From NCBI GenBank assembly GCA_031262595.1, contig JAISHI010000006.1:438-64437 (forward strand): 64,000 bases of DNA, in the 5' to 3' direction. The stretch comes from Christensenellaceae bacterium. GTDB lineage: Bacteria; Bacillota; Clostridia; Christensenellales; UBA1242. Below the pieces are notes generated by a model. That model was not told the DNA's origin. It searched no databases and worked only from the letters and a program-made list of their open reading frames with translations. This document shows, piece by piece, positions 27,175 to 38,649 of this stretch. Position numbers and translations under genes: made by a program. Each line of letters opens with the position of its first letter. The stretch's first letter is position 1.

Positions 27175-30100
27175 TTATGCGACGCGGGAGGCTGCGGACA
27201 ACGCTATATTTCTAAGCAAGCCCGTTACTTTAACGTAAACTACGTTTTCGGATTTCCATACTTTTATTTGGCACCCAATATTGACGCCCCCTATACTCGA
27301 AATCGGAGTCGCATCCGCCTCTCTTGTTGCTATCGTCGGCGCGGCTTCGTCATAAATAACCTTCGACACGTTAAACAAACTTATCGACGCAACTGTCCCT
27401 AATGTTGGGGTGAAGGTAAACGTATTTTCGTCGCTATTCTTAACGTTCGGAACCGTCGTTGCCGCCGTTCCATAGCTATCCGTTGCGAAATCGACAGAAA
27501 TGTTTCCAACAATTTTCCAAGTTAAATTTCTAACGTCATTTTCCGTGCCGCTCGCCCATTTATAGTTAATCGAGTCCGTTAGTGTAGCGGTTATCGTATA
27601 GTTTCCTACATCGGTTACGGATTGCGTTCCGCCATAAGTAAATCCGCTTGCGGTTGGTTTTGTTGGAGTTATAGCCGAGCCCAACCAACCAAAGGTTGTC
27701 GCGTCTGTAAGCGACGGAACCGCAACCGTTCCCCCGGAGGTTGTCGTTGTCGCGCCCGTAATTGACGGAACTGCGACGGAACCTTTCGTCATCGTAATAT
27801 TTATGGTTTTCTCTATAGAAGTATAATGAGTTTTACTTACCGTAATTGTTAATGTGGTTGTGCCGCTGTTGTATAATGTTGGCGTTCCGGAAATCGTTGA
27901 ACTGCTCAACGAGAGTTCGTTTGTTTTGGTCATGGCATAACTTACCCCGCTAGTGCCTTCCCATGATAATGTTCCCGAGTGCGCAACACCGACCGTTGCT
28001 GTTGTATCGTCAAGAGTTAGCGTTCCCGTAATAATTCCATTAGTTATCGTTATCGACCCAAGGTTTTGCGCACTAACAGCGTTATAGTTTGTTCCTTCAA
28101 GGACTCGAACCCAAACGTAGTATGTGTTTGGGGTAAGACTAGTTGTTTGAAAGCTACTCCAACCCTCTGTTGGCGCAGTCGTATCGTTTGAATGAAGTGC
28201 ATACTCTATCGTTCCGTCGCCAGTTCTGGTTGGCGCGGTCGTAACGAAATCTTGCGCGCCACCTGTATACGCAAAGCCCGTATACGTTCCGCCGGAAACC
28301 GAACCTGTGCCCTTCGCAACCGTAACTGTAACCGTTTTTGTTGCGGAATTATAATAGTTTGCGCTCGCTACGACGCTTAACTCGTTTGAGCCATATGTTG
28401 TTGGTGTTCCTGAAACTTCTGCCCCGCTTCCGCTAAATCCGTTTTTAGCAGTTAAAGAATAACTTACCGTGTTAGCCGCGCCAACGCTTGCCGTAAGCCC
28501 AGAGAGCGTTCCTGAATATGCGACGCCGACTGTTGCGATTGTATCAGAAATCGCGAGCGCCCCCGAAATAGTCCCTAAGCTTATGACAATCGAACCTATA
28601 CGTGTTGCGCCAACTGCGTCATAGTTATCCGATGCGGCGGCTTTCGCCCAAACGTAATATGTTTTTTCGCTTGTTGTATTTGGTTGGGCGTTGGTTGTTT
28701 CTGCGGTATTCCAAGTTGTTGGCTCGGTTGTATAGGCAGTCGAAAGCCCGTAAGAAATAGTTCCGCCGCCCGTCACTGTCGGCGCGGTCGTAACGAAATC
28801 TTGCGCGCTGCCGTTGTATGTTAAGTCCCTAAATTCCCCGCCCGAAATCGAGGCTGTCCCTGCTGTTGTTATCGCCCAACTTAGCGTTTTATTGGTGCGA
28901 GAGCCGTCCGACCATTCATAGTCCGCAGTTAAGGCTAACGTTACGGTATATGTTCCGACGTTTGTGCCCGTCGTTTGACCTGATATTGTGTAGGCTGTGG
29001 TATTTGTCTCTATGTTATGGTTCATCTCGTCACCAGTATAGGTTCGGCTTGCACCATCACTAGGAATTGCCACATATTTATAATCCGCCGTCACTACCGC
29101 GAGAGTATAAGGCTCTGAGGCGTTGTAATATGAATTCCCTGCCCAATATGCCGTTATTGTTGCCGTTCCGCTAACGCCAGTTGCTTCGATTACGCCTGCT
29201 GACGATACCGAGGCGACATTCCCATTAGTTGTAGTATATGTTAACGTTCCGACATTACCGCCGCCGCTTGCCGTAACGGTTTGCGTTGCGCCTTTCCTTA
29301 ATGTTATTGCTAGTGGACTTAACGCGCCCGTGTCGGGCGCGGCTTGGTCGGCTTTTATTGCCGTCACTGTCGCGACAGTATAATAGTCCGAGGCGTAATA
29401 GTTTGTCGTCTCTGCGTAATATGCCCTTATTATTGCCTCTCCGCTCGACGCAACGGCTCTTATCGTCCCGTCGTCTGGATCTACTGTTGCAACTAACGGC
29501 CTAGACGAAACATATATTAAATCCCCGATCGCGCTACCGCCGCTTACTGGCGCATCAATCGTCGAATTATATGCTATATCTACCGCGCCTAGCGCACCTG
29601 AGTTTGGCGCGTCTTGCTCGGCTTTTGTTGGTGTATATGCGCTCGAGGCGACGGAGGTTGTCCTCGCTGTTCCGCCCGCCGTTGGGCGATATTGAATAAA
29701 ACCGTAATATGGCGTATGGTATGTTTTATTCTCGAAAATATTGCTTTCTTGCCAACCTGTTGTTGGCGCGGTTGTGCTAGTTGAAACGGCATAATATCGA
29801 GTATAGCCTGTAGGCGCCGGAGTAATCATCCGCCCCCCCGTACTTACGGTTATAGTCGTTGACCCTGCCGTTCCCGTTACCATTGGTGCGCTCGGCGTCG
29901 GCATATCTCCGATGTTTATTGTCGGTAAAGTATACGAACCGACGACAGGAGAATGAACGTTATTATTGCCCAGTCTTATATCCAAAGACGTAAAATAGTC
30001 GTTTAATATATTAGTCATACCAGCAGGATCCGAAGCCCATGCGGCGCGGTCTGCGTAGAACACAATATCATATTCCGTCCATTCATCCCAATCATAGTCC

Positions 30101-31122
30101 TGCATCACGAGCCTATAATCTGTCCCGGGTTGATTATTCGTCTCATGCGGTGCGGAATAAGTTTCACCCTCTATAGTGGTTCCACTATTAGTCCTAACCC
30201 GACCGTCTACGGTTATAGGGGGGCGCGACATCGTCGTTTTTGGATATGGGTCATTCGCCACAACTATCCATTTATTATCCATTGCGTATCCATCCATTGT
30301 ATATCCAGCTGAGTTTGCAATTAATGTTGTGCTCGTTGGCCTTATTCTAAGTATTTCAACCAAGCCGCTCGATGCCGCCCCATAACTATATGGATAATTA
30401 ATCGCGCCCGGCGCGGTGTCGTTGGTGCCGAGAAGGGTTCCGTCGCCTTTATAAACGTTGCACCAATCCTTGTTTGGGTTGTCAAGTGTTATATTAAAAG
30501 TCATTGTTTTCGAGTATAAATCTATTTCGGTTCCGGGGATTCCTCCGGTAATAGGCGTGTCGTATGCTGAGTTCCTTCCTACTACCCCACGAATAATATA
30601 CGAGAATGTTATCGTTGCTTTTGCGCCGTCCAGCGCGTCCGCAGGAATCTCAAAATCTATATAAGCATAATCACCGCTATTAGTTAGCGTACCTGATGCA
30701 TAAGTATAACCCGGAAGAACTCGCGGAGTATTACTTAAACCTAAACCGCTCAAACTAGAGGATGAAATTCGTAAGCCCGCGCCCGGTGGACCACTGGTAT
30801 CTATATATACCCTATATCCATAGCCAGCAGCAAAAGATAAATCGGGATTAACCGAAAAAGTAATAAAATTATGCTTACCCGCTGTCATGGTTATGTCTTC
30901 TCGATAATTCGATACCGATGGCGGCATTGGGGTATTTGTGATGTGGCTCCCTCCTGAATTAGTTACAGTATGGAGCTCCCAAAGCAGAAAGTCGCTGGGG
31001 TCTGCTGATGCCGCCTGCGAGGTTGGTTCATTATTTGTCAAGAAAACGACGCCCGCCGTTGTTGCGCCGACGGCGACGACCGTTGTTAAGGCTAAAACTA
31101 AAATCTTAGCACGTGTCCACAT
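27175..31122 (-). CDS. Giant surface protein with Ig-like / MBG-type repeats
   Basis: About 1315 aa with an N-terminal signal or anchor. Repeated modules include two copies of about 183 aa. I prefer ATG 31122 (AGAGAGG SD 9 nt upstream) to TTG 31128. Confidence 0.75.
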   Translation of the reverse strand: MWTRAKILVLALTTVVAVGATTAGVVFLTNNEPTSQAASADPSDFLLWELHTVTNSGGSHITNTPMPPSVSNYREDITMTAGKHNFITFSVNPDLSFAAGYGYRVYIDTSGPPGAGLRISSSSLSGLGLSNTPRVLPGYTYASGTLTNSGDYAYIDFEIPADALDGAKATITFSYIIRGVVGRNSAYDTPITGGIPGTEIDLYSKTMTFNITLDNPNKDWCNVYKGDGTLLGTNDTAPGAINYPYSYGAASSGLVEILRIRPTSTTLIANSAGYTMDGYAMDNKWIVVANDPYPKTTMSRPPITVDGRVRTNSGTTIEGETYSAPHETNNQPGTDYRLVMQDYDWDEWTEYDIVFYADRAAWASDPAGMTNILNDYFTSLDIRLGNNNVHSPVVGSYTLPTINIGDMPTPSAPMVTGTAGSTTITVSTGGRMITPAPTGYTRYYAVSTSTTAPTTGWQESNIFENKTYHTPYYGFIQYRPTAGGTARTTSVASSAYTPTKAEQDAPNSGALGAVDIAYNSTIDAPVSGGSAIGDLIYVSSRPLVATVDPDDGTIRAVASSGEAIIRAYYAETTNYYASDYYTVATVTAIKADQAAPDTGALSPLAITLRKGATQTVTASGGGNVGTLTYTTTNGNVASVSSAGVIEATGVSGTATITAYWAGNSYYNASEPYTLAVVTADYKYVAIPSDGASRTYTGDEMNHNIETNTTAYTISGQTTGTNVGTYTVTLALTADYEWSDGSRTNKTLSWAITTAGTASISGGEFRDLTYNGSAQDFVTTAPTVTGGGTISYGLSTAYTTEPTTWNTAETTNAQPNTTSEKTYYVWAKAAASDNYDAVGATRIGSIVISLGTISGALAISDTIATVGVAYSGTLSGLTASVGAANTVSYSLTAKNGFSGSGAEVSGTPTTYGSNELSVVASANYYNSATKTVTVTVAKGTGSVSGGTYTGFAYTGGAQDFVTTAPTRTGDGTIEYALHSNDTTAPTEGWSSFQTTSLTPNTYYVWVRVLEGTNYNAVSAQNLGSITITNGIITGTLTLDDTTATVGVAHSGTLSWEGTSGVSYAMTKTNELSLSSSTISGTPTLYNSGTTTLTITVSKTHYTSIEKTINITMTKGSVAVPSITGATTTTSGGTVAVPSLTDATTFGWLGSAITPTKPTASGFTYGGTQSVTDVGNYTITATLTDSINYKWASGTENDVRNLTWKIVGNISVDFATDSYGTAATTVPNVKNSDENTFTFTPTLGTVASISLFNVSKVIYDEAAPTIATREADATPISSIGGVNIGCQIKVWKSENVVYVKVTGLLRNIALSAASRVA
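28232..28808. repeat. Internal tandem duplication (549-nt period) in the 1315-aa gene
   Basis: An identical 28-mer, GGCGCGGTCGTAACGAAATCTTGCGCGC, occurs at 28232 and 28781. The flanking protein modules of about 183 aa are collinear. Confidence 0.8.
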
Positions 31123-31166
31123 ACGCAAAAACCTCTCTTTCGTTTCAAGTCTATTATATAGAATAT

Positions 31167-31240: not shown

Positions 31241-31972
31241 CTATATCGCCTCGTCTTTTAGCGTTTCGCGGAATTCGGCGAGAACGCGTTGTTCGATGCG
31301 CGAAACTTGGACTTGGCTTATATTAAGAGCCTTCGCAACTTCGCTTTGGGTTGCATTTCGAAAATACCTTAGAAGCATAACTTTCCGCTCGCGCTCATCG
31401 AGGCTTTTTAGAAGGTTTGTTATCATAATTTTGTCGGTTAGGTCGACTGGGTCGCCGTTATCGCAAGGGATTTTTTCCGCGAGAGAAAGCGATTCGCCTT
31501 GGGAGTTTTCTGTTTTCTCGAACAGCGAAATCGGCAGATGCGACGCCTCCATCGCGAAAACAATTTCTTCGCGCGAAACGCCGAAATGCTGCGCAATTTT
31601 ATCAACGGATCTTTCCGTTTCGTCTTGGGTCGCGTTCAAATATTTTTTTATTTTAACGAACAAACTTTTAACGCTGCGCGAAACTTTTATCGCGCCGTCA
31701 TCGCGCAAAAACCGCTTAATTTCGCCCAAGATTAACGGCAGCGCATATGTTGTAAACTTTACGCCATAACTCGGGTCGTATTTCTCGATAGCCTTCGTAA
31801 AACCCAAGGCGCCTAGTTGATAAAGGTCATCGTATTCAACGCCCTTTCCGATATAGCCTTTTAAAACGCTCTTAATAAGAGGCGAATTAGAAATAATAAG
31901 CCTGTTTTTTGCCTCGCCGTCGCCCGTTTTCGCGAGCGCAATTAGTTCGGCTAGTTCGTTATTTGAAAGCAT
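31241..31972 (-). CDS. sigF: Sporulation sigma factor SigF
   Basis: 243-aa sigma-70 family protein with the region 4.2 HTH ISQVQVSRIE. It is the third gene after spoIIAA and spoIIAB. Confidence 0.85.
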   Translation of the reverse strand: MLSNNELAELIALAKTGDGEAKNRLIISNSPLIKSVLKGYIGKGVEYDDLYQLGALGFTKAIEKYDPSYGVKFTTYALPLILGEIKRFLRDDGAIKVSRSVKSLFVKIKKYLNATQDETERSVDKIAQHFGVSREEIVFAMEASHLPISLFEKTENSQGESLSLAEKIPCDNGDPVDLTDKIMITNLLKSLDERERKVMLLRYFRNATQSEVAKALNISQVQVSRIEQRVLAEFRETLKDEAI

Positions 31973-31978
31973 CGCGGT

Positions 31979-32437
31979 TCACTCTCCGCTCGCTAAATCT
32001 GCCGCCTTTTCTTTCGTAAAAAATTTTGTCATCTCAACCAAAACTCCGCCTCCAAAGTTATTATTGACGGAAAGGTTGTCCATGAAACTTTGCATAACCG
32101 TAAAACCCATTCCGCTCCTCTCGTCCTCGGGCGCGGTTGTATAAAATGGTTCGGTGGCCTTCGAGATATCCTCGATCCCGACGCCGTTGTCCGCGATTTT
32201 TATCGTTATTTGGTCGGCGAAAAGTTCGCACTCAACGAAAATCGTTCCGCCCTTCTTTTTATACGCGTGAACTATGCAGTTCGTAACCGCTTCGCTAACT
32301 GCGGTCTTTATGTCGTTAATTTGGTCGAGGGTTGGGTCGGCTTGGCTCGCGAACGCGCCGACAACTCCCCTAACGAAACTCTCGTTCTCGCTTTGCGCCT
32401 CAACTTCCATCTTAAATTTATTTAAAACTTTTTCCAT
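31979..32437 (-). CDS. spoIIAB: Anti-sigma F factor (serine kinase) SpoIIAB
   Basis: 152 aa with HATPase motifs EAVTNCIVHAY, DNGVGI and GMGF. Confidence 0.9.
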   Translation of the reverse strand: MEKVLNKFKMEVEAQSENESFVRGVVGAFASQADPTLDQINDIKTAVSEAVTNCIVHAYKKKGGTIFVECELFADQITIKIADNGVGIEDISKATEPFYTTAPEDERSGMGFTVMQSFMDNLSVNNNFGGGVLVEMTKFFTKEKAADLASGE

Positions 32438-32455
32438 TTTATTTTCTCCTTATAA

Positions 32456-32764
32456 TTACGATACTTTGGGCATAACTTGATATAGCCCAGTCATCTTAAA
32501 AATCCGATCCGCTTGGCTCGATGGGTTCGCGACAAAAACCGGTATATTTTTATCCTTCATCTTCTTATAACGCCCGATTAAAACGCCGATGCCTGTGCTG
32601 TCCATAAAACTTAGGTTAGTTAGGTCGATAACAATTTGCGTAAACCCCGTTCCATTCATGACTTGTTCCATATAGGTGCGCGTATATTCCGCCGAATATT
32701 CGTCAAGTTCGCCGTCGAGCGAGATATAAAGAACGCCCTTATAAACTTTGTTTGCAAGTTTCAT
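32456..32764 (-). CDS. spoIIAA: Anti-anti-sigma factor SpoIIAA (STAS domain)
   Basis: 102 aa with the STAS motif FMDSTGIGVL. An AAAGGGGG SD lies 4 nt upstream. Confidence 0.85.
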   Translation of the reverse strand: MKLANKVYKGVLYISLDGELDEYSAEYTRTYMEQVMNGTGFTQIVIDLTNLSFMDSTGIGVLIGRYKKMKDKNIPVFVANPSSQADRIFKMTGLYQVMPKVS

Positions 32765-32923: not shown

Positions 32924-32952
32924 TTGTCAAACTAACAACTTTGTATTACATT
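32924..32952 (+). promoter_or_regulatory. Radical-SAM/UDG gene promoter TTGTCA-17-TACATT, with the -10 box 6 nt from the ATG
   Basis: Hexamers read directly from the sequence. Confidence 0.55.
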
Positions 32953-32958
32953 ATCGAC

Positions 32959-34770
32959 ATGGCTAAAGTTTTATTGCTTAATTCGCCAATCTTTAATGAG
33001 AAACAACTCACAAAAGAAGATTATTTACCCCCTATTGGGTTGGGATATATAGCCACGAATTTAGAGCAAAACAATATACCGGTTGAAATATTAGACGCAG
33101 TTCATGAGAATTTAACTATTGATGAAATCGTAGAAATACTTAAACAAAAACAACCAAATTTTGTCGGAGTAAATATTTTTTCAATAAATCAAAATCTTGT
33201 GAAACAAATTATAGAGAACTACAAAGGCGATACAACATGGCTGCTCGGGGCGAAAACCGTTCAATCACTTTATAAAGAGTTTCCGCAATACAACACAAAA
33301 AACAAAATTATTGGCGTAATCGGTGAGGCGGATTTAATAACGGCTGACATTATAAATAATAACGTAAAAGAAAAACCATCTTTTTCACAAGGAAACACGA
33401 CTATTTATTCGGTTGGCAAGAACTCATTTTATTACCCGCATGATATTTCACAATTAAAACTTGATAGAAGGCTTTTTGCGGACAGAGTTATAAAAAATCC
33501 CTATGGACTACAAGAGGATGTCCTTGTAGGGTCTCGTGGGTGCGTATATAATTGTGCTTTTTGTGGTGGCGCAAGGTCATTAAATAAAAGTGTTGCCCCG
33601 CGCGTTCGTAATATTGAAAGTCTTAAACAAGAGATTATCGAAATAAAAAAACTTAACCCACAAGTTGAATGTATAAGAATGTTGGATGACCTCTTTTTAA
33701 GAAATCGCAAAAGCATAGAACAAGCCATCGAACTATTTACAAAATCCAATTTGCAATGGCGCGCTATGGCGCATATAAATGTATTCAAAGGGAATCTGGA
33801 TTTGTTGGAAAGATTGAAAGAATCTGGTTGCGTAGAGTTAGAAATAGGTATTGAAAGCGGTAACGACAAAATGCGAGAAGTTATTCATAAAGAAGGCTCC
33901 GTTATGGATGTAAAAAGTGTTGTTGGCAGCCTCCTCGATAATGGACTTAATGTCAAAGGGTATTTTATGTATGGCTTGCCTAATGAAACATTACAACAAG
34001 CAACAGATAGTTTCGTTTTAGCAAACGAATTACATGAATACTCTCAATCTACGTTGGGTAATTTTAAGACAAGCGCTTTTCAATTTAGACCTTATCATGG
34101 AACGGAATTATTTGCTAATTTAGGGTTAAATTCCAATCAAGAATATAAGCATATAGAAAGTCAAAACGACATGATAGGTAGGCAACAATTTAATTTTATG
34201 GCTGAAAATTACAGCCAATGTTCGCAACAAGAAATTGATGAACTTGTTATAAAAACAAACTCATTATCGAAAAATAGAAAAAATTTAACAATTCCTAATA
34301 GGACAAAAGCATTAAAAAAGTGTGACGTTATGATGGTCGGAATATCGAATAAAGATGATGAAAAGGGAACTATGCTCGAAGCATTCGATGGAAGTACAAA
34401 TTCTGGGAAACTTATACAACAAATTGAAACAGTAAATTCTAATATAAATATATATAAAACAAACCTTGTCAAATTCACGCCGAAAGACGAGCGCGGAAAA
34501 ATCCGTTATCCTTTAAAAGAAGAAATTGACAGCCAAATAGATTTATTACTTGATGAAATCAAAAACAAACAACCTAAAATTGTATTAGCAATGGGTAATA
34601 TGGTGTTTGATTACCTTAATGCTATAAAAAATCAGATAGATGTTCCCATAGAAAAAGTGGAACACCCTTCATTCGTTACCATTTATCGCAGAAAACAAAT
34701 AGGCGAATATATCGCAAAGATTACGCAGATCATAAACACATATTGCAATGAACAAGAAAAGGAGCAATAA
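32959..34770 (+). CDS. B12-binding radical SAM enzyme fused to a C-terminal uracil-DNA-glycosylase-fold domain
   Basis: N-terminal B12-binding-like domain (LPPIGLGYIATNL), radical SAM motif GSRGCVYNCAFCGG, and a C-terminal domain of about 150 aa collinear with family-4 UDG (MMVG.., YKTNLVKFTP, KIVLAMG, HPSF). Confidence 0.75.
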   Translation: MAKVLLLNSPIFNEKQLTKEDYLPPIGLGYIATNLEQNNIPVEILDAVHENLTIDEIVEILKQKQPNFVGVNIFSINQNLVKQIIENYKGDTTWLLGAKTVQSLYKEFPQYNTKNKIIGVIGEADLITADIINNNVKEKPSFSQGNTTIYSVGKNSFYYPHDISQLKLDRRLFADRVIKNPYGLQEDVLVGSRGCVYNCAFCGGARSLNKSVAPRVRNIESLKQEIIEIKKLNPQVECIRMLDDLFLRNRKSIEQAIELFTKSNLQWRAMAHINVFKGNLDLLERLKESGCVELEIGIESGNDKMREVIHKEGSVMDVKSVVGSLLDNGLNVKGYFMYGLPNETLQQATDSFVLANELHEYSQSTLGNFKTSAFQFRPYHGTELFANLGLNSNQEYKHIESQNDMIGRQQFNFMAENYSQCSQQEIDELVIKTNSLSKNRKNLTIPNRTKALKKCDVMMVGISNKDDEKGTMLEAFDGSTNSGKLIQQIETVNSNINIYKTNLVKFTPKDERGKIRYPLKEEIDSQIDLLLDEIKNKQPKIVLAMGNMVFDYLNAIKNQIDVPIEKVEHPSFVTIYRRKQIGEYIAKITQIINTYCNEQEKEQ

Positions 34771-34780
34771 TAAATCCTCG

Positions 34781-35524
34781 TTAAAGAGCCGTTATTATCG
34801 CGAATTCTAATGCGGAGCTCGAAAGGTTTTCGCTCGTATTCGAGAGCGCGAACAGGGCGAGGGCGAGGTTGTTGCTGTCAACTAAGATTTTCGAGTAGTC
34901 GGCGAGTTTTGCTTCGTTTTGCATTTTGTTTAATGCGGTCGATAACGCTATAACTTCGTTATAAAGTTTAAGCGCGGCGATTTTTAATTCTTCGGTCGAG
35001 GGTTTTTCCGTTCTAAACGTTAATAAACTCTCGAAAACTTCCGCGCGTTTCGCGAAAATATTACCTATTAAATGTTCATCGTCGGCGCGGGCATTAAAGG
35101 TTTTTTGAAATTCTTCCCTCTCGGCAACGGTCGCGTCGCCTAAGCCCTCGCCTGTCATGAGCGCCTTATTCGCGTCGTCGACGGTTTTATATATGCTCTC
35201 GATAACGACGAACTTATCGCCGTCGCTTACGATAAAGCCTGCCCCGCCACTTAATTTACTTTTTCGAGAGAGTTCCATCGCGGTTGTTTTATCCGCGACG
35301 CCCGCGACCTGAATCGCGTAAACTTGCGGCGTTGTTTGGGTTATCGAAACTATATCACCGTTAGAACCCGCCGCGCCGAAACTTGGGAACTTAAAAAAAT
35401 GAAACTTCGCATTACAAGCCAGCGCAACAATCGCCAGCAATAATAAAACCGCAACCAGCGGAAACATAAACTTTTTCTTCGGTTTAAACCGCTTATACTC
35501 AAACTCGTTATAAATTTGATCCAT
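34781..35524 (-). CDS. Membrane-anchored SPOR-domain-like protein
   Basis: 247 aa with an N-terminal TM segment. The segment YAIQVAGVADKTTAMELSRKSKLSGGAGFIVSDGDKFVVIES resembles a SPOR domain. Confidence 0.5.
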   Translation of the reverse strand: MDQIYNEFEYKRFKPKKKFMFPLVAVLLLLAIVALACNAKFHFFKFPSFGAAGSNGDIVSITQTTPQVYAIQVAGVADKTTAMELSRKSKLSGGAGFIVSDGDKFVVIESIYKTVDDANKALMTGEGLGDATVAEREEFQKTFNARADDEHLIGNIFAKRAEVFESLLTFRTEKPSTEELKIAALKLYNEVIALSTALNKMQNEAKLADYSKILVDSNNLALALFALSNTSENLSSSALEFAIITAL

Positions 35525-35563: not shown

Positions 35564-35592
35564 TTGACTATGGTTGCGTGAGCCTCTATAAT
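35564..35592 (+). promoter_or_regulatory. dnaN promoter TTGACT-17-TATAAT, with the -10 box 6 nt from the ATG
   Basis: Hexamers read directly from the sequence. Confidence 0.65.
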
Positions 35593-35598
35593 GAAGGT

Positions 35599-36699
35599 AT
35601 GAAAATAATATGTGATGGAGCTTGTTTGGCGGACGCGGTTAATACAGTCATCCGCGCAACAAACGGAAAAATAAACCCAAGCCTCGGCGGAATTAAAATC
35701 GTAGCCGCTGGCGATACGCTAACCCTTTTCGCGACGGATATCGAAATGTATATAACGAAGGTTATAAAGGCTGATGTTCGGGAAGAGGGAACGTCGATTG
35801 TTCCCGGCAAAATCTTCGCGGATTATGTTCGCTTACTGGATAAAAGCGCGCAAGTTGAACTCGCGAGCGATGCAACCTCGATTATGATAACCCACGGCGA
35901 GAATGTTTGTACTTTCACCCTTATGAGCGAGAGTGAGTATCCAGACATCTTAAAACTCGGTTCAAAACCGCACTTCGCAATCAAATCCCAAGACCTTAAC
36001 GACATTATCACGAAAACAACAATTTGCGCCTCGCGCGACGACAGCCGCCCAATCCTTAAAGGCGTTCTTTTTGAACTTGAAGGAAAGAATCTAACCTGCG
36101 TTTCGCTCGACGGATATAGGCTCGCGAAAGTTAATAAAACGGTTACGAACGTCGGAACGGATATTAAGTTTGTTGTGCCCGCTCGAAGCCTTGACGAGGT
36201 TAAGAAGATGCTAACTGGCGACACCGGCGACGTTAATATCGTTATCGAAAATAAGTTTTTCGGCATCGCGCTTAACGGAACGACTTTCGCAACGCGCCTT
36301 ATGGACGGCGAATTTATAAATTATAAACAAGTTATCCCGCAAAGTTTCGAATCAACGGCAGTCCTCGATAAAGAAGAGTTTACCGAGTCTGTTGTTCGGG
36401 CGGGGATTGTCGGCAGCAACGCAAATACGAAAATTATAAGCCTTAAATTTGAGGGAAAATCCGTTGCAATCTCCGGCATAAGCCAAACAGGCAACACAAA
36501 CCAACGCGCAAACGCAAAAATTACGGGTAAAGACCTCGTTATTGCGTTTAATGCCGAATATCTAACGACCGCGCTCGGCGGAATAAACGAGCAATTCGTT
36601 TTATTATCCTATAACTCTGCCCTCGCGCCTTGTACGTTAACAAGCACAAAAGACGGCGGCGATTATCTCTTCTTAATCTTGCCTGTCCGCGCGAACTAA
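35599..36699 (+). CDS. dnaN: DNA polymerase III beta subunit (sliding clamp)
   Basis: Motifs RPILKGVLFE, DGYRLA, LMDGEFINYKQVIP and LILPVR. ATG 35599 gives the canonical N-terminus MKIICDG. Confidence 0.85.
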   Translation: MKIICDGACLADAVNTVIRATNGKINPSLGGIKIVAAGDTLTLFATDIEMYITKVIKADVREEGTSIVPGKIFADYVRLLDKSAQVELASDATSIMITHGENVCTFTLMSESEYPDILKLGSKPHFAIKSQDLNDIITKTTICASRDDSRPILKGVLFELEGKNLTCVSLDGYRLAKVNKTVTNVGTDIKFVVPARSLDEVKKMLTGDTGDVNIVIENKFFGIALNGTTFATRLMDGEFINYKQVIPQSFESTAVLDKEEFTESVVRAGIVGSNANTKIISLKFEGKSVAISGISQTGNTNQRANAKITGKDLVIAFNAEYLTTALGGINEQFVLLSYNSALAPCTLTSTKDGGDYLFLILPVRAN

Positions 36700-37650: not shown

Positions 37651-38649
37651 TTATAACTGAACGCTCTTGCTGGCTTGTTTCTTTATTTCTTCGCTCATGT
37701 GGGCGTAGTGTTTTCGGGTTGTGTTAACGTCTTTATGCCCTAAAACTTCCGCGACAACATAAATATCTTGAACGGCTTCATAAAGGTTTGTGCCGAACGT
37801 GCTTCGAAGTTTATGCGGCGAGATTTTTTTAAGCGGCGAGACGACGCGGGCGTATTTATATATAACGTTTTGAATGGCTCTGGGAAGAAGCCTTTGGTCG
37901 CCTCGTTTTGCGCCATTTTCGCTCGTTTTTAGGCTTAAAAATAAAGGTTCCGCGATATTTTTAACGCGCTCCCCTAGATAACTTTTAAGCTCCTCAGCGC
38001 AAAAATCCGGCATATACAAAATCGAAACATTTCCGCCCTTTCGCTGAACCCGAAACGAATTATCCTTAAAATTTATGTCGCAGATATTAAGCGCGGCGAG
38101 TTCGCTTATGCGGATGCCAGTCGCGAGAAACAAAACGATAATCATCTTATCCCGCGCGCTTGTTTTTATCGTATAACTGCGTTGATGCTCGGTTTGGTCG
38201 GCGAGCTCGTCAGGCGCGTCGATAAGTTCGCGGCTCTCATCTTTATCAAGGCGGATGATTTCCTTGTCGTGGATTTTCGGCGCGTCGATTTTTTCCATAA
38301 CGTTTTTCTCAATCTCGCCGATTTTTAAAAAGTATTTAAATAAATTTTTAAGCGCGGAAACCTTACGCGCAACGCTCCGCTCCGTCATCTTCGATAGAAA
38401 CGCAAGATAAACCTCTATATCATGAACGCTTAAGCTTTCTAAGTCCTTCGCGGTTTTAATTTCGCGCCCTAAATTTTCTTTCATAAACCCTAAAAACGCG
38501 CTAATATCGCTCGCGTAGTTAAGCCGAGTTAGAGGGCTAGTTTTTTGCGAAATCGCGTTTATGAAAACAGCCAAAAACGGCGGATTTTTATCTAAAATTT
38601 TCTCCGTTCGGGCGAGTGTTTCGCTGTTGCGCTTTTCGATAAACCCCAT
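37651..38649 (-). CDS. Tyrosine recombinase (XerC/XerD-like)
   Basis: 332 aa with catalytic motifs ATGIRISEL, HKLRSTF and LGHKDVNTTRKHYAHM. Confidence 0.8.
   Translation of the reverse strand: MGFIEKRNSETLARTEKILDKNPPFLAVFINAISQKTSPLTRLNYASDISAFLGFMKENLGREIKTAKDLESLSVHDIEVYLAFLSKMTERSVARKVSALKNLFKYFLKIGEIEKNVMEKIDAPKIHDKEIIRLDKDESRELIDAPDELADQTEHQRSYTIKTSARDKMIIVLFLATGIRISELAALNICDINFKDNSFRVQRKGGNVSILYMPDFCAEELKSYLGERVKNIAEPLFLSLKTSENGAKRGDQRLLPRAIQNVIYKYARVVSPLKKISPHKLRSTFGTNLYEAVQDIYVVAEVLGHKDVNTTRKHYAHMSEEIKKQASKSVQL

Follow-up and report, generated by a model that had tools for sequence, protein, structure and literature searches.

The window analysed here is a 64,000-nucleotide stretch of a Christensenellaceae bacterium genome assembly (GCA_031262595.1, contig JAISHI010000006.1, positions 438 to 64,437). 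Its subject is a gene for a 603-amino-acid protein (P0001) in which a B12 (cobalamin)-binding-like domain, a radical S-adenosylmethionine (SAM) core and a domain with the uracil-DNA glycosylase (UDG) fold follow one another in a single chain. A preliminary description, made from the sequence alone, had proposed this three-part architecture, and it is borne out by Pfam searches and by AlphaFold2 models compared with solved structures using Foldseek. The protein is a single-chain version of an enzyme pair that is normally encoded by two overlapping genes. Its gene is the single long open reading frame (ORF) on the forward strand between spoIIAA and a convergent gene for a 247-amino-acid protein (Table 1), and its N-terminus, MAKVLLLNSPI, agrees with that of all homologues.

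Domain architecture and gene context

The radical SAM domain (residues 192-348) scores 75.1 bits with PF04055 (cut-off 29.5), and C195, C199 and C202 of its cluster motif are invariant across 41 aligned sequences. The CxxxCxxC motif, the score above the Pfam cut-off and fold matches to solved enzymes place the protein in the radical SAM superfamily. The N-terminal domain (residues 22-125) falls just below the cut-off of PF02310 when the protein is searched (30.2 against 32.1 bits) and reaches 32.7 bits in a six-frame search of the genome; homologues carry precomputed PF02310 assignments. Residues N8, P10, G27, L28, D46, N72, F74, N77, G97 and G122 of the N-terminal part are invariant in the family alignment. 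With the N-terminal two thirds of the model as query, Foldseek retrieved AprD4 as the best match, together with MgmA, OxsB, TsrM, MiaB, CysS and TokK, at 11-17% identity. The assignment of this domain as B12-binding comes from its fold, and binding or use of cobalamin is putative. The 13 NCBIfam models for named B12-type radical SAM families (HpnJ, PhpK, BchE, BzaD, MgmA and others) all score far below their cut-offs, the best being HpnJ with 77.3 bits against a cut-off of 577.6.

The radical SAM core is followed by a C-terminal extension, after which, at about residue 440, the radical SAM protein of the two-gene form ends. The linker that comes next (residues 441-452) stands where the stand-alone UDG-like proteins of the alignment have an N-terminal CxxC segment. 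AlphaFold2 modelled the whole protein, from alignment A4, with a mean predicted local distance difference test score (pLDDT) of 90.0 and a predicted template modelling score of 0.72; the UDG-fold domain alone, modelled from alignment A2, reached a pLDDT of 92.8.

This last domain scores above the cut-off of the UDG superfamily model PF03167 (37.8 against 24.3 bits, residues 455-589). Foldseek matches its model to UdgX (top) and to the family-4 UDG structures 4zby, 1l9g and 1ui0, with a probability of 1.00 and a template modelling score of about 0.66. At the sequence level, the profile of the UDG-like family aligns end to end with the family-4 enzymes 4zbx (E 6.5e-17), TM0511 (6e-13) and 1ui0 (8e-12) and more weakly with UdgX (E ~2e-5). 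The domain misses the curated family-4 cut-offs by far (TIGR00758, 27.4 against 125.3 bits; NF040953, 28.6 against 250). The motif alignments that the preliminary description had drawn by hand agree with hidden Markov model alignments to 4zbx, and its two departures from family 4 are equally apparent: VGISNK stands in place of the GEAPG of motif A, and all four Fe-S cysteines are missing from this copy (in the linker, VKFTP and DSQIDLL), although most stand-alone members of the UDG-like family keep them.

In uracil-DNA glycosylases, an asparagine reads N3-H and O4 of uracil, a histidine stabilises O2, the glutamate of motif A positions the water and the HPS(Y)LL loop intercalates into DNA. The corresponding asparagine (N502) and the H569-P-S of motif B are kept in the fusion protein, and both are invariant across 40 members of the UDG-like family. 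In the same alignment, the G and S of WVGLSAK, the G of TNSG, the E of IE, the N of YKTNLVK, a proline, the YP of RYP, the G of LLG, the HP of HHPSY and two tyrosines are also invariant, and all family-invariant residues are retained in the domain of the 603-amino-acid protein. Also retained in the family is HPSY(I/L), an intercalation-loop motif that genuine DNA-acting enzymes have. The invariant residues and the altered motif A thus indicate that the pocket and the DNA-type loop have been kept and the water-activating acid lost. The UDG-like partner is a derived, distinct and constrained clade of family-4 UDGs, and its fused copy plausibly binds a base rather than excising it. Excision is less likely but conceivable, since family-5 UDGs lack the motif-A acid and are nevertheless active.

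Table 1. Coordinates in the window of the fusion gene, its domains and motifs, and adjacent features.
Feature	Position	Strand	Basis or remark
Complete coding sequence of the 603-amino-acid fusion protein P0001	32959..34770	+	ATG start, stop codon included
N-terminal Rossmann-type B12-binding-like domain, residues 22-125	33022..33333	+	PF02310 and fold matches
Radical SAM core, residues 192-348	33532..34002	+	PF04055
Cluster motif C195-x3-C199-x2-C202	33541-33564	+	Within radical SAM core
C-terminal extension of radical SAM enzyme, residues 349-440	34003..34278	+	Motifs FQFRPYHGT, RxQFNF
Linker, residues 441-452	34279..34314	+	pLDDT < 50, predicted disordered
UDG-fold domain, residues 453-592	34315..34734	+	PF03167, A2 alignment, profile against PDB, AlphaFold2/Foldseek
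Motif-A position G461-I-S463-N-K	34339-34353	+	
Base-pocket N502	34462-34464	+	
Motif B H569-P-S	34663-34671	+	
Promoter-like site TTGTCA-17 nt-TACATT	32924..32952	+	Consensus scan; ends 6 nt before ATG
spoIIAA	32456-32764	-	Upstream neighbour of fusion gene
Gene for a 247-amino-acid protein	34781-35524	-	Convergent to fusion gene

The gene differs in composition from its surroundings. Its GC content of 33.5% compares with an ORF median of 45.6% and is the ninth lowest among 595 ORFs (eight are lower); at third codon positions it is 28.4% against a median of 50.4%, the fourth lowest (three are lower). In windows of 500 nt the GC fraction is 0.31-0.38 inside the gene and rises to 0.43-0.47 on either side of it. 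The preliminary description had called the gene richer in AT than its flanks, placed it beside the sigF operon and noted a convergent neighbour 10 nt away with no terminator. All three statements hold: STAS, HATPase_c_2 and sigma-70 domains identify the upstream genes as spoIIAA-spoIIAB-sigF, and the stop-to-stop distance downstream is 10 nt, with no terminator-like site between the two genes. Its label 'SPOR' for the downstream gene finds no support in the Pfam search, in which the protein has no match. The only match of that protein in a collection of 5.8 billion proteins is itself, and its counterparts within the host family are only ~25-29% identical.

No Shine-Dalgarno sequence is visible on reading the sequence before the ATG. 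Because the -10-like TACATT ends only 6 nt before this codon, the messenger RNA may, speculatively, be leaderless; the consensus scan gave no more promoter-like sites than it did on shuffled sequence. On the reverse strand, positions 27175-31128 encode a Thr/Ser-rich protein of 1317 amino acids, probably located at the cell surface, which carries internal repeats and, at its N-terminus, a signal or anchor segment and matches no Pfam family at E <= 0.001. The insert is closely followed downstream by a dnaN gene (35578-36699) and a gene for a XerD-like recombinase (37651-38649).

A widespread gene pair, its fusions and its mobility

The search of 5.8 billion proteins assigned the first ~440 residues to a family of stand-alone proteins of 440-450 amino acids (45-55% identity); taken together, the stand-alone homologues have 440-470. 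In Cellulosilyticum lentocellum, for instance, the stand-alone gene has a Thymidylate_kin gene upstream and a UDG gene (193 amino acids) 3 nt downstream. When one genome of each species (~185,600 genomes) was scanned by pattern, relatives appeared in at least 187 genomes. The best 80 of these were analysed; they belong to Bacillota, Bacteroidota, Patescibacteria, Campylobacterota, Thermodesulfobacteriota, Ignavibacteriota, Pseudomonadota and a Woesearchaeote. The UDG-like gene is present in 76 of the 80 loci and, in 72 of those 76, directly follows the radical SAM gene in the same orientation, most commonly with an overlap of 4 or 8 nt. Three of the four loci without it stop at a contig edge. 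The pairing of the two parts is near-obligate, and the fusion is a derived form of this widespread, translationally coupled gene pair.

A gene for a deoxythymidine monophosphate (dTMP) kinase stands directly beside the pair in 27 of the 80 loci. These cassette kinases are true dTMP kinases, scoring 101-118 bits with TIGR00041 against an equivalog cut-off of 83.25. The closest split clade (L029-L038, 50-52% identity) consists of the overlapping pair only and resembles the fusion locus, both being solitary amid housekeeping genes, with no kinase. The host genome has one Thymidylate_kin gene above the cut-off, located on another contig (C21) and not beside the fusion, as well as one ordinary UDG.

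None of the 80 analysed genomes carries the fused form. The full-length fusions found among the 5.8 billion proteins were P0002 (62% identity), which is the closest relative of the fusion protein and has a Thymidylate_kin gene 49 nt downstream, and the group of P0058, P0060 and P0066 (38-41%). When 1.84 billion cluster representatives were scored, 94 matched at E <= 1e-30, including three full-length fusion clusters (P0001, P0060 and P0129) and a junction-spanning fragment (P0232). The preliminary description knew of no direct fusion of a class-B radical SAM enzyme with a UDG, and such fusions are indeed rare. A scan of IMG/VR returned no relative, and BFVD contained no fusion, only remote class-B-like phage proteins.

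On the maximum-likelihood tree built from the radical SAM part, at least two changes are required to explain the fused state. Fusion arose independently, at least three times in all, and this recurrence suggests that the two parts act together as a single unit. The Fe-S cysteines have been lost in three of the four fusion lineages, whereas the P0058 group keeps them. Intact members without them, besides the protein described here, are L063, L070, L095, L105 and P0129, and because the loss recurs in this way the cluster looks dispensable.

Two of the other fusions have features of their own. The P0129 gene (L112:3657-5486, Logan SRR10595398 contig 12110) contains 42 in-frame TGA codons, many of them at glycines conserved in the family; translation with table 25 (TGA = Gly; Gracilibacteria/SR1) restores the family motifs, where the gene call of the collection had tryptophan. 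It adjoins a Phage_integrase gene, and the 201-amino-acid gene upstream of it was considered as a kinase and rejected. QueC, a DNA methyltransferase of the N6/N4 type and a QueE-like radical SAM protein are encoded ~4 kb away from the P0058 fusion (L003:1-4000, Logan SRR33454346 contig 2718), which hints at a 7-deazaguanine DNA-modification cluster on this element; PHROGs gave nothing specific for the contig, and we do not call it a phage.

The preliminary description considered horizontal acquisition, and three observations speak for it: the foreign GC content, the presence of a true homologue in only one of 24 genomes of the host's family, and a tree of the radical SAM part in which phyla mix freely. 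The single homologue (in genome G004) has the split form and is not the sister of the 603-amino-acid protein in the tree, and acquisition by the host looks independent and recent. The module is horizontally mobile. Insertion at this particular locus is suggested by composition and distribution. The same-family relatives belong to other genera and share no synteny around spoIIA, and no convincing target-site duplications or inverted repeats flank the gene. The host assembly (811 kb, 29 contigs, 83% complete) represents a very small genome, 0.81 Mb assembled compared with 0.8-1.3 Mb in relatives, which has kept the spoIIAA-spoIIAB-sigF operon (31241-32764).

Serine and tyrosine recombinases or integrases recur near related loci. 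Among 150 immediate neighbours of these loci, for which no control set was used, PADLOC recognised Kiwa at five loci, MADS at four, RmrA at three and Gabija GajB at two; at the five Kiwa loci, KwaA and KwaB adjoin the pair. In 18 loci, mostly from Bacteroidota (e.g., L056:3579-7924), the radical SAM and UDG-like genes end a fixed order of five genes that starts with an HTH_3 and Peptidase_M78 regulator, a 177-amino-acid protein and a membrane protein of ~260 amino acids. The second of these shows a PIN-like D..E..D..D pattern read by eye and the third a conserved soluble C-terminus; neither has a Pfam match.

The Streptomyces phage SF3 and Streptomyces plasmids carry a more distant radical SAM homologue, 28% identical over residues 4-413 (E 5e-44). 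Its cassette (L110:5124-8497, gp35-gp38 of the phage; L111:4136-7413) encodes, in this order, an AlkA-like helix-hairpin-helix (HhH) protein, the radical SAM enzyme of the B12 type, a dTMP kinase, and NUDIX or MazG; in SF3, a temperate phage, it lies near the integrase. As in the pairs described above, the radical SAM gene overlaps a DNA-glycosylase-like gene, and the dTMP kinase comes next. The glycosylase-like protein gp35, labelled only as hypothetical in the record, matches the archaeal AlkA structure 2jhn (E 6e-5); its assignment as a UDG was rejected (hhalign probability 0.04). This sister cassette differs from the other loci in its HhH-GPD partner, its added nucleotide pyrophosphatase and its actinobacterial and temperate-phage hosts. 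Since the partner is AlkA-like here and UDG-like elsewhere, the constant companion of the radical SAM enzyme is a DNA-glycosylase scaffold of either fold.

Possible reactions and roles of the pair

As to substrate, chemistry, cobalamin use and biological role, we infer the following. The UDG-fold domain would serve as the substrate-handling module, flipping out or binding a thymine- or uracil-type deoxynucleotide, most likely within DNA, and handing the bound base to the radical SAM core. The core would use its [4Fe-4S] cluster to cleave SAM, generating a 5'-deoxyadenosyl radical, and, with cobalamin, if the N-terminal domain binds it, the base or its sugar would be alkylated or rearranged. 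The outcome, in conflicts between phages, mobile elements and hosts, could be the marking of DNA or damage to foreign DNA. Near-obligate coupling, recurrent fusion and the swap to another glycosylase fold all speak for the glycosylase-type module as the half that handles the substrate. The retention of the uracil-type asparagine and the dTMP kinases of the cassettes point to a thymine- or uracil-type substrate. We prefer action on DNA because the ancestry of the partner and its conserved loop are of the DNA type and because two thirds of the loci have no nucleotide enzymes. Judging from its genomic company, the module most likely serves phage, mobile-element and host conflicts. Taken as a whole, this is the reading that we tentatively favour, while giving it somewhat less than an even chance.

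Several observations weigh against it. The closest solved structure to the N-terminal part is that of AprD4, which has the same domain and is, to our knowledge, not a cobalamin user, and the 83%-complete host assembly contains no other gene with a B12-binding domain and no cobalamin riboswitch. The minimal module comes without a partner nuclease or reader through which a mark on DNA would become useful, and no description of the pair was found in the literature searched. UDG folds can hold free deoxyuridine monophosphate (dUMP), as in the UdgX-dUMP complex 6ajp among the Foldseek matches. Finally, the dTMP kinases of a third of the loci and the NUDIX or MazG proteins of the sister cassette act on free nucleotides, which is more in keeping with a pathway in the nucleotide pool than with a reaction on DNA.

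In such a pathway, the core would modify a free pyrimidine deoxynucleotide of the dUMP, dTMP or deoxythymidine triphosphate type held by the UDG fold, and a dTMP kinase, from the cassette or the host, would phosphorylate the product. This could be a nucleotide analogue with antiviral action, like those of the prokaryotic viperins with their kinases, or else a precursor of modified DNA, following the T4 and SPO1 logic of an NTPase, a modifying enzyme and a deoxynucleoside monophosphate (dNMP) kinase. We regard this as a real possibility, nearly as good as action on DNA. OxsB, one of the fold matches of the radical SAM half, takes part in oxetanocin A synthesis; it is likewise of the B12 type and acts on free deoxyadenosine phosphates. 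Besides the kinase genes beside the pair and 3' of the fusion P0002, and the combination of dTMP kinase with pyrophosphatases in the Streptomyces cassettes, the pathway gains from the similarity of the kinases to PADLOC models PDC-M51B and VakA, the latter of which we take, as a guess that the literature did not confirm, to mean 'viperin-associated kinase'. E. coli defence systems with thymidylate-synthase, dNMP-kinase and 5-hydroxymethyldeoxyuridine (5-hmdU)-kinase domains have moreover been validated in the DefensePredictor study (PMC13092281). On the other hand, two thirds of the loci, including that of the fusion, are without a kinase, a pure nucleotide pathway would not need the constant DNA-glycosylase-type partner, of either of two folds, and the intercalation-loop motif, which is typical of DNA binding, is conserved.

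If action on DNA is taken to its full consequence, the pair would be the first cobalamin-type radical SAM enzyme to work on DNA, with a base-flipping domain feeding thymine or uracil from the duplex to the radical SAM site, where C-alkylation or rearrangement would create a new base modification or a lesion in phage-host conflict; in this complete form the proposal is doubtful. The UDG-like domain might instead remove a phage-specific base, or one altered by the radical SAM enzyme, so that abasic sites block phage replication. The invariant serine, asparagine and histidine at catalytic or pocket positions, the activity of family-5 UDGs and the defence genes adjoining some loci would suit such a glycosylase, but we consider it unlikely: motif A (GLSAK or GISNK) lacks an acid or amide where water would be activated, excision by a single enzyme gives no clear reason for an obligate partner of the radical SAM type, and no mechanism for telling self from non-self is apparent.

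A role in DNA repair, in which radical chemistry would reverse or process a pyrimidine lesion in parallel to spore photoproduct lyase or the TIGR03915/TIGR03916 pair, seems more improbable still. The linkage between radical SAM and UDG-like proteins has a precedent there (TIGR03914), the host is a spore former with the gene beside spoIIA, and the regulators upstream in the 18 five-gene loci, mostly of Bacteroidota, are of the ImmA/IrrE type (HTH and Peptidase_M78), which is often responsive to DNA damage. The pair is nevertheless patchy among species and within the host family, has a foreign GC content here and integrase and defence genes as neighbours, and occurs also in non-sporulating phyla and in bacteria of the candidate phyla radiation; the fusion protein misses the TIGR03914 cut-off and does not match TIGR03916. 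Least probable of all is a stranded remnant, intact but idle in a host without a cobalamin supply, for although the copy has no cassette kinase (unlike its closest relative P0002), no Fe-S cysteines, no visible Shine-Dalgarno sequence and neither a second PF02310 gene nor a cobalamin riboswitch in the assembly, its 603-codon frame is intact with every family-invariant residue of both halves, the Fe-S loss is shared with other intact members, the nearest split clade also has no kinase and the assembly is only 83% complete.

The fusion should be of practical value, as a single polypeptide without a second Fe-S cluster should ease expression, reconstitution and structure solution compared with the two-protein form. 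A product that proved to be a new DNA base or a new antiviral nucleotide would widen what B12-type radical SAM enzymes are known to do and add to the range of nucleotide-based immune strategies.

Comparison with known systems

The nearest database entry is PDC-M51 of PADLOC, a purely bioinformatic candidate for which we found no paper. Its two components, M51A (a B12-type radical SAM protein) and M51B (thymidylate-kinase-like), have counterparts here: PDC-M51A matches residues 24-351 of the 603 of the fusion protein (56.5 bits, E 5e-16; a model without a curated cut-off), and the cassette kinases of related loci match PDC-M51B (E 1e-10 to 1e-12). These matches are moderate and, in the fusion protein, concern the radical SAM part only; PDC-M51 consists of two genes without a glycosylase-like component, the UDG-like partner has no PADLOC model, and no kinase of the M51B type adjoins the fusion gene.

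The preliminary description also mentioned the association of a different, non-B12 radical SAM family with UDG-like proteins (TIGR03914 to TIGR03916) and kept it apart from the fusion. The two systems are distinct, since the protein scores 17.5 bits with TIGR03914 against a cut-off of 189.95 and matches neither TIGR03915 nor TIGR03916 at E <= 1. TIGR03914 is named UdgX-family uracil-DNA binding protein in NCBIfam, and the linked pair is labelled 'DNA modification/repair'. Both systems tie a radical SAM gene to a UDG-fold protein derived from family 4, and UdgX is the top Foldseek match here, but the radical SAM enzyme of the other pair is not of the B12-domain class and its motif A reads GEQPG rather than GISNK.

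With the family-4 UDGs of S. tokodaii (4zbx), T. maritima (TM0511; 1l9g/1vk2) and T. thermophilus (1ui0), the UDG-like family shares the fold, collinear from end to end, as well as the pocket asparagine, the HPS(Y) of motif B and, in most members, the four Fe-S cysteines. It departs from them in that GE(A/G)PG has become G(L/I)S(A/N)K and PF-x-G-x-AG has become PL...TNSGK, in its constant coupling to a radical SAM enzyme and, in the fused copy, in the absence of the Fe-S cysteines.

Phage clusters for thymidine hypermodification contain 5-hmdU DNA kinases, glycosylase-fold transferases of the aGPT-Pplase type and dNMP kinases. These clusters and the E. coli defence systems (PMC13092281) follow a similar logic, combining a glycosylase-type scaffold with a base-modifying enzyme and a thymidylate-type kinase. 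The DefensePredictor study predicts further systems with aGPT-Pplase, MazG and UDG domains and does not mention radical SAM or B12. The kinases of our loci are true dTMP kinases and not 5-hmdU DNA kinases, and a ThyA-like hydroxymethylase is missing.

Viperins with their kinases, as well as OxsB, likewise apply radical SAM chemistry to a nucleotide with an optional kinase partner, but the fusion protein has no sequence relation to viperin and only 12-13% identity to OxsB, and neither of the two has a partner with a glycosylase fold. The albucidin cluster, described in a paper that cites the OxsB study as reference 24 (PMC7074753), was considered and set aside as irrelevant, its thymidylate kinase simply lying nearby. 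The association of a radical SAM enzyme with a DNA-glycosylase scaffold recurs in many phyla as well as on plasmids and in one temperate phage; the theme of a radical SAM enzyme with a UDG-type protein, and PDC-M51, were already loosely known, and what the present locus adds to them is a rare natural fusion.

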